Shown: piece by piece, positions 2,134 through 4,332 of the stretch
Layout: the number at the start of each line of letters is the position of its first letter
Position numbering within the stretch: position 1 is the stretch's first letter
Assembly: GCA_965213625.1 (NCBI GenBank)
Contig: CBDBZU010000004.1
Location: 1,024,001 to 1,088,000 of the forward strand
DNA from: a bacterium
GTDB lineage: Bacteria; UBA8248
Length of the DNA stretch: 64,000 nt
Direction: 5' to 3'
Notes under the pieces: model-generated
What the model saw: the letters and a program-made list of their open reading frames with translations, nothing else
What the model was told of the DNA's origin: nothing
Databases searched by the model: none
Translations under genes and position numbers: made by a program

Positions 2134-2379
2134 ATGTCCGATAAGGAAGTGACGGTCTATTCGTCCACGTTCTGAGCGCCGTGCAAGGCGGTGAAAGAGT
2201 TTCTTTCCCATCATGGCGTGGCGTACACGGAAAAACTCGTCGATCAGGACGAAGCAGCTCTGGAGGAACTCTTCCAGAGAGCGGAGATGCGGGCCACGCC
2301 CGTGATTTTCATCGGCGAGGAGAAGGTGGTCGGCTTCGACAGGGCGAAGCTCCAGGCGCTTTTGGGGCTCGCCGCGTGA
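2134..2379 (+). CDS. Glutaredoxin/NrdH-redoxin-like selenoprotein (UxxC active site)
   Basis: ATG 2134 after RBS GGGAG gives MSDKEVTVYSSTF-U(TGA 2173-2175)-APCKAVKEFLSHHGVAYTE...ATPVIFIGEEKVVGFD; TGA occupies the first Cys of CxxC; hairpin GAAAGA-GTT-TCTTTC downstream. Confidence 0.88.
2176..2215 (+). promoter_or_regulatory. Candidate bacterial SECIS element for the glutaredoxin Sec codon
   Basis: Stem GAAAGA(2193-2198)/TCTTTC(2202-2207) with a G-initiated loop about 23 nt after UGA. Confidence 0.55.
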
Positions 2380-2675
2380 GCGAGAGGCGAAAGACGCTTC
2401 CCTGCCACGGCTGAGGGCAGCGCATACCCGTCCCGTGGGACGCGAAGCCGCGCGACCTCATCGATTGCGGCAACTGAGCGGGGGTCAGGTTTCGCCTGGG
2501 CCGGGCGGAGGGGACGGAGGTGCTCACCGTCGTACAAATGGTCTCATGCCCTGTTTGCGGCGAGCGCATCCCGGTGGATGGGGATACCTCCGCAGGAACA
2601 ATCGTGGAGCACGACGGAAAAAGGCTTTGCCTGGAGAAGGAATTCGGCGCGTTCGTTCTGGAACCTGCGGAATAG
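2376..2675 (+). CDS. Small LysW-like zinc-ribbon repeat protein with two predicted selenocysteines (CHGU...CGNU, then CPVC)
   Basis: GTG start overlaps the grx stop (GTGA); MSERRKTLPCHG-U-GQRIPVPWDAKPRDLIDCGN-U-AGVRFRL...VSCPVCGERIPVDGDTSAGTIVEHDGKRLCLEKEFGAFVLEPAE*; TGAs at 2412 and 2475. Confidence 0.78.
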
Positions 2676-2804: not shown

Positions 2805-3761
2805 GTGGCTGAGCGGGATTTCGACATCATCATCATCGGAGCGGGACCGGCCGGACTGACGGCGGGGCTTTACACGGCGCGCTCGAAGCTGAACGTGGTC
2901 TGCTATGAAAAGCTCGCGCCCGGCGGCGAGATTCTCAACACCGAGCACGTGGAAGACTACCCGGGCTTCGAACTGGTCGGCGGCCAGGAATTGGCGGCCA
3001 AGTTCACCGATCACGCCATGAAATTCGGCCTCAATATAGAGATGGAAGAAGTATCCGAAGTCCGCAAGGACGGGGATGATTTCGTCGTCGTCACCGATAT
3101 GGGCGAGCGCCGCTGCGGCGCCGTGATCTACACGCCCGGCGGTTATCCGAAAAAACTCGGCATTCCGGGCGAGGAGAAATACGCCGGCAAGGGCGTGAGC
3201 TACTGCGCGCTGTGCGACGGCGCGTTCTTCCAGGACGAGGTCATCACCGTAATCGGCGGCGGGAACAGCGCCGTGGAAGAGGGGCAGTTCCTCACGAAGT
3301 TCGGCACGAAGGTCTACATCATCCATCGCCGCGATCAGTTCCGCGCCCATGCGGTGCTGGTGGACAAGATTCGCGAGAACCCGAAAGTGGAGATCATCAC
3401 CGATTTCGTACCCGAAGAAGTGGTGGGCGACGACCGGGAGATGAAGAAGCTTCGCATCAAAAACGTGAAGACGGACGAGACGCAGGAGATCGATGCCACG
3501 GGCCTGTTCGTCTTCATCGGTTTTATTCCGAACACGGATTTGATAAAAGATCACGTAGAAAAAGACGACGCAGGCTTCATCTTGACGGACCAGAACATGG
3601 AGACGAACGTTCCGGGCCTGTTCGTGGCCGGTGATTGCAGAAGCCAGCTGATTCGCCAGATTACCAACGCGTCGGGCGATGCGACGACGGCGGCGGTGGC
3701 GGCCGAGAAATATCTCGAAGCCCAGGAAGAGGCCAAGAAGGCCGCGGCAGCGGCTTCCTAG
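2805..3761 (+). CDS. trxB: Thioredoxin-disulfide reductase
   Basis: GAGPAG, GKGVSYCALCDG, GGGNSAVEE, HRRDQFRA and GLFVAGD motifs. Confidence 0.93.
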   Translation: MAERDFDIIIIGAGPAGLTAGLYTARSKLNVVCYEKLAPGGEILNTEHVEDYPGFELVGGQELAAKFTDHAMKFGLNIEMEEVSEVRKDGDDFVVVTDMGERRCGAVIYTPGGYPKKLGIPGEEKYAGKGVSYCALCDGAFFQDEVITVIGGGNSAVEEGQFLTKFGTKVYIIHRRDQFRAHAVLVDKIRENPKVEIITDFVPEEVVGDDREMKKLRIKNVKTDETQEIDATGLFVFIGFIPNTDLIKDHVEKDDAGFILTDQNMETNVPGLFVAGDCRSQLIRQITNASGDATTAAVAAEKYLEAQEEAKKAAAAAS

Positions 3762-3783
3762 AGCACAAGGCGAGGAGAGGGAA

Positions 3784-4332
3784 ATGGGGTTCACCAGGGG
3801 GATTCAGAAGTTCTTTCTCTGGGATATCGTGAAGGGCATGTCCGCCACGCTGCGGCATATGTTCAAGAAGCCCGTCACGCTTCAATACCCGACGGAGCGC
3901 TGGGAGCCGCCCGAGCGTTTTCGCGGATTTCTGGGTCTCACGCGCGATTTCAAGACGGGCGAGGAGCTTTGCATCGGCTGCCTGAACTGCGAGAAGGCCT
4001 GTCCGGTGGACTGCATCACCATCGTCACGGCGGGCAAGGGCCGCGAGATGTACGCCAAGGAATTCTATATCGACTACATGCGGTGCATGTACTGCGGGCT
4101 TTGCACCGAGGCGTGCCCCACGACGCCCAAATCCATCGTTCATACCCATCAGTACGAGACGCCCGGCTATTTCCGGGAAGATCTCGTGTATGAAAAAGAA
4201 CGCCTCTACGACGTCTGGGAAAAAGAGGTGAACTACACCGGCCCCAGGCCCTGGGGCAAGCTGTTCGGCCTCAGGAACGAAGAGGCGGACATGCGGCCTG
4301 AAGCTCCTGCCGAGACGGCGCCCGCCGAATAG
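3784..4332 (+). CDS. nuoI: NADH-quinone oxidoreductase subunit I-like 2x[4Fe-4S] protein (stand-alone)
   Basis: VTLQYP..RFRG, CIGCLNCEKACP and CMYCGLCTEACP; ATG 3784 after RBS GAGG. Confidence 0.85.
   Translation: MGFTRGIQKFFLWDIVKGMSATLRHMFKKPVTLQYPTERWEPPERFRGFLGLTRDFKTGEELCIGCLNCEKACPVDCITIVTAGKGREMYAKEFYIDYMRCMYCGLCTEACPTTPKSIVHTHQYETPGYFREDLVYEKERLYDVWEKEVNYTGPRPWGKLFGLRNEEADMRPEAPAETAPAE

Follow-up and report, generated by a model that had tools for sequence, protein, structure and literature searches.

We analysed a 64,000-nucleotide (nt) stretch of bacterial DNA (the window: positions 1,024,001 to 1,088,000 of the forward strand of contig CBDBZU010000004.1, assembly GCA_965213625.1, from a member of the phylum UBA8248) and, near its start, a small gene that we call ZR. 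The gene consists of a 99-codon frame with two in-frame TGA codons, which we interpret as selenocysteine (Sec, U) codons in a tandem of two LysW-like zinc ribbons. Its GTG start overlaps the stop codon (TGA, 2377-2379) of an upstream glutaredoxin-like (Grx) gene by 4 bases (GTGA). The parts of ZR are as follows, in window positions.

2376-2675, + strand: ZR gene, putative tandem LysW-like zinc-ribbon selenoprotein; 99 codons, GTG start at 2376, TAG stop at 2673-2675
2412-2414, + strand: predicted Sec codon 1 (TGA), residue 13; second position of knuckle C10-x-x-U13, context LPCHG-U-GQRIPVP
2475-2477, + strand: predicted Sec codon 2 (TGA), residue 34; second position of knuckle C31-x-x-U34, context LIDCGN-U-AG
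2403-2477, + strand: zinc-ribbon unit 1; ligand set C10, U13, C31, U34, in columns that are always Cys or Sec in 26/26 aligned sequences
2547-2615, + strand: zinc-ribbon unit 2; C58, C61, H79 (D80), with residues 55-98 aligning to S. tokodaii LysW 3vpb_E

A prediction made earlier from the sequence alone (the original prediction) had described this GTG-opened frame with two TGAs (2412 and 2475) that each occupy the second Cys position of a CxxC knuckle, and an internal duplication with Cys opposite the TGA of unit 1. The sequence reads as claimed; the knuckle positions are borne out by the frame and by the Cys codons of orthologues; and the two halves of the protein align to each other (BLASTP, 8/25 identities, E 7e-05 for a single comparison) with C61 opposite U13. 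That gene callers would miss the full frame was also anticipated: under genetic code table 11 the region leaves just one open reading frame (ORF), of 51 amino acids (aa; 2520-2675), and its product has no exact copy in a collection of 15 billion proteins. No further ZR paralogue was found in the window's own genome, and ARAGORN finds no tRNA gene in the window.

Reading of the in-frame TGA codons

Several lines of evidence bear on whether the two TGAs are read as Sec. First, a profile search of 51 genomes of the phylum found a ZR orthologue in 30, with two TGAs in 9, one in 9 and none in 12. Written as the pair of knuckle columns, these are UU in 9, UC in 8, CU in 1 and CC in 12, so that site 1 holds TGA in 17 orthologues and a Cys codon (TGY) in 13, and site 2 holds TGA in 10 and a Cys codon in 20. 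With TGA read as U, the in-frame TGAs of the orthologues are confined to these two columns. Sec occurs at site 1 in three genera of two families and at site 2 in two genera, and each of the 13 ZR sequences of the window's genus carries at least one. The original prediction had looked to homologues with Cys or TGA at the same columns, and these 30 genomes supply them; a pattern of this kind lies far beyond chance on the sequence comparison.

The alignment behind the residue counts comes from a six-frame search of 61 genomes, which gave full-length matches at E < 1e-12 in 26, the window's genome included; a scan of genome contigs with a single pattern that demanded Cys at site 2 gave 6 loci. C10, C/U13, C31, C/U34, C58 and C61 are invariant in all 26 aligned sequences, and H79 is kept in at least 90%. 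A GTG or ATG start lies exactly 9 codons ahead of C10 in 19 of the 26 loci and 5-13 codons ahead in 25; the remaining locus (L035) is without one.

Second, the frame is under purifying selection across both TGAs. For the window's genus, with 12 of its 13 sequences compared (L029 was excluded for a one-codon indel), the ratio of nonsynonymous to synonymous substitution rates (dN/dS) is 0.21 overall in frame, against 1.6 and 1.8 in the other two frames. By segment it is 0.40 for codons 2-12, 0.27 for codons 14-33 and 0.17 for codons 35-99.

Third, the genome (4.15 Mb, 4 contigs) encodes the Sec machinery, another check that the original prediction had named: selA (564 bits), the adjoining selB (388 bits), selD (333 bits) and tRNA-Sec (75.9 bits) all score above their cut-offs. 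The selD gene, which lies outside the window (G000:C4:1518852-1519814), has one in-frame TGA of its own, so SelD itself would be a selenoprotein. The BSepDB paper gives 48-54 selenoproteins per Nitrospinota-labelled genome of phylum UBA8248.

Fourth, other contigs keep the region. Contigs from two runs of one study, probably the source of the window, are identical across 2100-2800, at word depths of 28 and 170, and a contig of a second study that spans 2100-2513 has 10 differences, none listed at either TGA. Recurrence in relatives and in these contigs contradicts the possibility, raised at the outset, that the TGAs are sequencing errors or private nonsense mutations.

The region also turns up in other collections. 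Several of the sequence sets that hold a small share of it are sponge or marine metagenomes. A 1118-nt contig of a relative, from a sponge metatranscriptome library, spans 2133-2632 and covers the Grx and ZR genes; it has 63 differences, with 2 compensating indels near ZR codons 2-6, and 40 of 71 differences are listed, identity at the TGAs falling outside these. This contig is a hint of expression at most, an RNA-library origin being no proof of transcription.

We also weighed a reassigned code, in which TGA would mean Trp or Gly, and discarded it: TGA serves as an ordinary stop codon in 20/28 Grx and 7/26 ZR orthologues, and the residue aligned with the in-frame TGAs is Cys.

We then compared both sites with the bacterial selenocysteine insertion sequence (SECIS) model given in the legend to Fig. 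2 of PMC13188914, which has an apical loop of 3-9 nt with a G within its first two positions, an upper stem of 4-16 base pairs (bp), 16-37 nt from UGA to loop and a minimum free energy of at most -7.5 kcal/mol. Both ZR sites fit this model through the following candidates.

2420-2453, + strand: SECIS candidate 1; core CGUCC-CGUG-GGACG at 2429-2442, loop CGUG, spacing 19 nt, -11.4 kcal/mol
2484-2515, + strand: SECIS candidate 2; core 9-bp hairpin at 2490-2510, loop GGC, spacing 21 nt, -13.1 kcal/mol

Both hairpins named in the original prediction (2429-2442 and 2483-2502) exist; the first stands, and the second is better placed at the overlapping 2490-2510. At site 1 a hairpin of different sequence occurs at the same place in two relatives (L032 and L041), and the structure there is partly dictated by coding, because the conserved peptide PVPWDA is encoded at this position. 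At site 2 the best hairpins average -14.2 kcal/mol in the 10 Sec forms and -10.5 kcal/mol in the 20 Cys forms, and the RNAalifold consensus of the 10 Sec forms is the 2490-2510 hairpin (-16.7 kcal/mol), with one compensatory pair in L041. No SECIS or other Rfam family was found in 2050-2800, where the single match was a chance miRNA hit (E 2.4).

The case for Sec rests on the comparative data, because the hairpins are merely compatible with Sec insertion and weak by themselves. That ZR is no selenoprotein, its TGAs being stops (in a pseudogene or in mini-ORFs) or assembly errors, would agree with hairpins no better than chance and with a frame that gene callers miss, and is very improbable, being already contradicted by the comparative data: site 1 has TGA in 17 genomes and site 2 in 10, with Cys codons in the rest, purifying selection acts throughout the three segments and in no other frame, contigs at depths of 28 and 170 are identical with no TGA change listed in the second-study contig, and the genome holds the Sec machinery. 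Judged on these comparisons, ZR is a genuine 99-residue selenoprotein gene with two predicted Sec residues.

Fold and family of the ZR protein

The original prediction had recognised the spacing of LysW-like zinc ribbons in the protein, and both family models and fold agree. Pfam PF21344 (LysW-like zinc ribbon) matches two stretches of ZR at 30.1 bits, above its cut-off of 27. The NCBIfam LysW/ArgW model NF041070 aligns with residues 9-54 at 44.3 bits, under its cut-off of 75; a distant member of the family reaches 53.5 bits. AlphaFold2, run on a 26-row alignment with U replaced by Cys, as had been suggested, returns an all-beta model (mean predicted local distance difference test score (pLDDT) 86.5, predicted template-modelling score (pTM) 0.68). 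Its top match in the Protein Data Bank (PDB) by Foldseek is LysW of S. tokodaii (3vpb_E; probability 1.0, template-modelling score (TM) 0.75, root mean square deviation 1.1 over 47 columns), at 36% identity and an E-value of just 0.067, followed by Thermus LysW (5eio_C). Unit 2 also aligns with 3vpb_E by sequence, through a CPVC ... EH motif. On sequence and model together, ZR is a predicted tandem of two LysW-like ribbons.

We do not regard ZR as LysW itself, because its family score falls below the cut-off, its C-terminus varies outside one genus and lysine or arginine biosynthesis is absent among the identified neighbours. Within the window's genus 12 of 13 sequences end in Glu (..LEPAE, window 2661-2672), much as LysW does; C-termini outside the genus are unconserved, with A, G, V, I, L or S as the last residue or with long tails. 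Rubredoxin is absent from the Pfam and NCBIfam match lists of ZR at E up to 1, and the FmdB family (TIGR02605) gives no ZR match at E up to 1, with 17.5 bits for the distant member (cut-off 31.3).

A profile search of 1.84 billion representative proteins gave 90 at E <= 1e-3, 39 at E <= 1e-10 and 3 at E <= 1e-30. Many of the short matches start at profile positions 24-51, and may be gene calls that restart past a TGA, as would be expected of such calls. The relatives are named 'hypothetical protein' or, automatically, 'paraquat-inducible protein A'. All six Cys are retained in distant members, which show C/H-C at positions 79-80; a tblastn search with a distant member against a plasmid collection gave no match. 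Two database proteins appear to be fusions: P0036 combines the C-terminus of a Grx with ZR, and P0050 combines ZR unit 1 with a MerF-like helix. These echo the gene order described below and are probably frameshifts or calling artefacts.

Neighbouring genes and mercury-type cassettes

The genes on either side of ZR in the window are a second predicted selenoprotein gene and trxB.

2134-2379, + strand: Grx-like (YruB/NrdH-type) selenoprotein gene (putative); Sec TGA at 2173-2175 in motif T-F-U-A-P-C, stop TGA at 2377-2379
2805-3761, + strand: trxB, thioredoxin-disulfide reductase; TIGR01292 362.9 bits, cut-off 343.45

That the upstream glutaredoxin is itself a selenoprotein had passed without remark in the original prediction. 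It scores 78.9 bits with NCBIfam TIGR02196 (cut-off 88.55), and other Grx models match as well. A UxxC Sec-Grx gene lies directly upstream of ZR in all 30 loci of the phylum, with TGA in every one, even beside CC forms of ZR, and the 20 of 28 orthologues that stop in TGA end in an ATGA or GTGA overlap with the ZR start. The SECIS-like fold after the Grx TGA (shuffle z -2.67) is the only notable one of the three sites. Downstream, trxB follows ZR with the same orientation in 10 of 17 loci of other genera and 3 of 4 of the window's genus, several contigs ending earlier.

We compared up to 7 kb on each side of ZR in 20 genomes, and the window itself, with proteins that hmmscan had named. Outside the window's genus the usual order, on one strand, is (PrpD-like)-(YnfA-like)-grx-ZR-[merE/merF/merT/CopZ-N-like/merR]-trxB-nuoI-like. 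Clear mer-type genes lie between ZR and trxB on that strand in 15 of the 17 loci of other genera; in the other two (L102 and L103) the mer signal is limited to a 35-bit MerE-like match. The matches by family are listed here.

MerF: 89.5 and 93.4 bits (cut-off 50)
MerE: 35 bits (cut-off 22.8)
MerT: 46.4 and 38.7 bits (cut-off 32.9)
CopZ N-terminal metallochaperone (CopZ_Nterm, NF047645): 112 bits (cut-off 100)

The MerR match (143 bits) is just under its cut-off of 150.85, with the CadR, ZntR and CueR models close behind. MerA, the mercuric reductase, was over cut-off in none of the 5 genomes tested.

A number of individual loci add detail. One MerT-family protein beside ZR (L039 1867-2241; Pfam MerT, 46.4 bits) has a TGA in the Cys pair of its first helix (SSAC-U-IGP), and tblastn with this protein finds MerT-like proteins beside ZR in L091, L095, L099, L101, L105 and L106. 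A class-I FAD disulfide reductase is encoded downstream of ZR in two genomes (G030, L093 3702-5018, - strand; G042, L097 11083-12400, + strand); it scores 317 bits as glutathione reductase versus 301.5 bits as MerA, below every cut-off, and in G042 it is split into two pieces. In part of the window's genus an insert of about 1.1 kb separates ZR from trxB, in L024 (1938-2841), L020, L025-L029, L109 and L110 and is absent from the window; in L024, the single such locus read, its two ORFs (130 and 167 aa) have no NCBIfam or Pfam match. In the window, a PrpD/MmgE-like gene (678-2048) lies upstream and a NuoI-like 4Fe-4S gene (3679-4332) downstream, in places that many other members of the phylum share; the two gene names rest on translations and tblastn similarity rather than on a family search.

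A second, distant lineage carries the same pair of genes. A metagenome search with 8 distant representatives and with patterns that demanded Cys at site 2 gave at least 600 matching stretches, 523 of them confirmed relatives; the counts below refer to the best 80 of the 523. The gene order is merR (divergent) / merB(Sec)-grx(Sec)-ZR-(merF)-merT, and ZR is CC in all 80 loci, as the patterns demanded at site 2.

Grx upstream of ZR: 66/66 loci with at least 300 nt of flank
UxxC Grx active site: 67 loci, the remaining 13 without enough flank
MerB-like directly upstream: 49/49 loci with at least 1000 nt of flank
MerT-like downstream: 72/80
MerR: 49/80
MerF: 34/80

The MerB-family gene of one such locus (L133 3091-3759) matches the full PF03243 profile at 104.6 bits and has an in-frame TGA inside the match, immediately ahead of a conserved NFF motif. 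This makes it a candidate Sec-MerB, and one that differs from the SaoL model (63.6 bits, cut-off 140).

Proposed function and comparison with known systems

The best explanation of these data as a whole is that ZR is a two-Sec tandem ribbon that works in partnership with Grx and TrxB and holds a soft-metal site, a reading to which we assign a probability of roughly 0.6. Its parts are not equally firm. ZR is probably co-translated with the Sec-Grx and works with it, TrxB feeding NADPH-derived electrons to Grx. More tentatively, and at somewhat less than even odds, the Cys4 or Cys2Sec2 site of ZR could serve to bind and hand off a soft thiophilic metal in the cytosol, most likely Hg(II). It is rather doubtful that Sec-Grx, ZR and TrxB together provide a mercuric-reductase-independent way of handling cytosolic Hg(II) and thus the missing partner in the many genomes with MerB and without MerA.

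TrxB reduces NrdH/YruB-like glutaredoxins. In the proposed mechanism, ZR would be made together with Grx through the 4-base overlap; TrxB would reduce the NrdH/YruB-like Grx, which would then act on ZR. Metal would reach the unit 1 site (Cys4 or Cys2Sec2) from MerT-, MerE- or MerF-type transporters or from MerB, and the Sec-Grx/TrxB couple would keep that site reduced, or load and unload its metal. ZR might thereby stand in for the metallochaperone step that the MerA N-terminal domain performs in classical systems, with Sec raising metal affinity and exchange rate. The grx-ZR module would then mark a MerA-less variant of mercury cassettes, its function being one that we infer.

A number of observations weigh against this account. 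Most Sec forms belong to one genus, so the relatives are not independent. About 30% of control codons in the window also pass the SECIS-model test (89 of 300 taken at random in frame, and 43 of 129 that encode Cys); folding against dinucleotide shuffles gives z -1.09 at site 1 (28 of 200 shuffles fold as well) and z -0.17 at site 2 (85 of 200); and at site 1 the best hairpins average -8.6 kcal/mol in Sec forms versus -11.5 kcal/mol in Cys forms. Unit 2 is without a clear fourth ligand in the ZR subfamily of the window. As to the metal, MerR-type regulators and MerT/E/F-like proteins do not prove mercury specificity. The window's genus has no mer genes beside ZR (4 of 4 loci) and keeps grx-ZR-trxB; Pfam MerE and MerT gave no match in 5 of 5 of its genomes, the MerE control being silent in all control genomes. 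Since the mer genes are gone in the very genus in which the double-Sec form dominates, the role of ZR there would need no Mer transporters.

The last of these points bears most directly on the alternative that survives best, which we consider unlikely at about one chance in four: ZR would be a redox protein and not a metal carrier, its CxxU knuckles cycling between selenol/thiol and a selenenylsulfide or a U13-U34 diselenide. It would then be a substrate or relay partner of Sec-Grx/TrxB, for example a zinc-releasing switch, with the mer genes adjacent for regulation only. CxxU recurs among the prokaryotic selenoproteins in the PMC13188914 tables, the Grx has Sec at every locus, and grx-ZR-trxB survives mer loss in the window's genus, where UU dominates and 13 of 13 ZR carry Sec. 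However, the four positions are arranged as in the metal site of a zinc ribbon, ZR lies inside mer-type cassettes of two distant lineages, and Sec is absent from 12 of 30 orthologues and from 80 of 80 distant ones (whose search pattern demanded Cys at site 2). As between a metal site and a diselenide, the genes around ZR in relatives speak for a metal. The two roles do not exclude each other, and both may hold.

Two further alternatives make use of the fold. Two CxxC(G) knuckles in a small beta protein, with a NuoI-like ferredoxin gene after trxB at many loci, would fit a rubredoxin-like one-electron carrier with an Fe-Cys4 or Fe-Cys2Sec2 centre that works with the NuoI-like 4Fe-4S protein and TrxB. 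We hold this to be improbable: no rubredoxin family appears among the Pfam matches at E up to 1, the closest matches in sequence and fold are to zinc-binding LysW, and the tight, overlapping pairing is with Grx and not with the ferredoxin. Still less probable, its LysW-like fold and the C-terminal Glu of 12 of 13 sequences in the window's genus notwithstanding, is a LysW/ArgW-like amino-group carrier with substrates on the C-terminal glutamate: the NCBIfam LysW score is 44.3 bits under a cut-off of 75, the C-terminus is unconserved outside the genus, and no LysX/ArgX-type ligase or lysine/arginine gene occurs among the named neighbours, the other flanking ORFs lying outside that search.

Returning to ZR as a Sec-bearing metal-site protein, we next considered whether it had been described. 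The original prediction recognised no known selenoprotein family in it, and none was found here: ZR matches none of the dozens of selenoprotein-specific models in NCBIfam release 20, and the available parts of PMC13188914 and bioRxiv 10.1101/2022.07.06.499078 hold no entry that fits ZR or the Grx-ZR pair and no LysW; PF21344 and NF041070 are absent from those of PMC13188914. A literature search found no selenoprotein of the LysW or bacterial zinc-ribbon kind, BSepDB entries and supplementary tables lying outside its scope, so that a listing under another name is possible. By these comparisons, ZR represents an apparently new family of selenoproteins, in which an uncharacterised tandem zinc ribbon takes a Sec form.

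As such it adds a family that annotation pipelines truncate and that places two predicted Sec where a zinc ribbon apparently binds its metal, which is rare. Together with the Sec-Grx it forms a conserved two-gene module in the mercury-type cassettes of two distant lineages, one a sponge- and marine-associated, Nitrospinota-labelled phylum and the other made up of abundant soil-metagenome organisms. The cassette merB(Sec)-grx(Sec)-ZR-merF-merT offers concrete, expressible candidates for the question raised by Christakis et al., and the natural Cys/Sec series CC, UC, CU and UU offers material for the role of selenium at a tetrahedral thiolate site.

Among known systems, LysW/ArgW (PF21344; 3vpb_E, 5eio_C) shares with ZR a small, two-knuckle zinc-ribbon fold. 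LysW/ArgW proteins have a conserved acidic C-terminal tail that ends in the attachment Glu; ZR lacks such a tail and, unlike them, is a tandem, bears predicted Sec and lies in a redox and mercury context. A precedent for Sec in a zinc-ribbon knuckle is the Sec form of the FmdB-family zinc ribbon TIGR02605, with UxxU and two Sec per protein, which is the nearest entry to ZR in the available PMC13188914 table. There both Sec lie in one knuckle, whereas ZR, of a different family, has one Sec per knuckle (CxxU ... CxxU).

ZR also resembles the metallochaperone modules of metal resistance. MerP and the N-terminal domain of MerA are mercury metallochaperone modules, and like these and the CopZ N-terminal module ZR is small, Cys-rich and, outside the window's genus, encoded beside MerT, MerE or MerF and MerR, with receipt of cytosolic Hg(II) as its proposed task. 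Unlike MerP and the MerA N-terminus, it is a zinc ribbon, not a ferredoxin-like heavy-metal-associated domain, and has four ligands instead of two; and in contrast to classical mer systems, the 5 genomes tested have no MerA over cut-off.

For the pairing with Grx, Kim et al. reportedly described in 2011 a Sec-glutaredoxin that serves a selenoprotein substrate, MsrA, a 'tandem use of selenocysteine'. Both that system and this one join a UxxC Sec-Grx to a Sec-bearing partner; here the partner is ZR instead of MsrA, and Sec is present in Grx at all loci and in ZR at 18 of 30.

Finally, Sec is already known in mercury-related proteins, which in the available parts of PMC13188914 and bioRxiv 10.1101/2022.07.06.499078 include MerT (C/SxxU, CU), HgcA, HgcB and the MerB-like SaoL. 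As in those entries, Sec in ZR would replace Cys at soft-metal ligand positions, and the cassettes that hold ZR also encode MerT and a MerB-family protein in predicted Sec form. If the MerA-independent handling of Hg(II) proposed above is true, the double-Sec ZR would be a natural protein built on the affinity of mercury for selenium.

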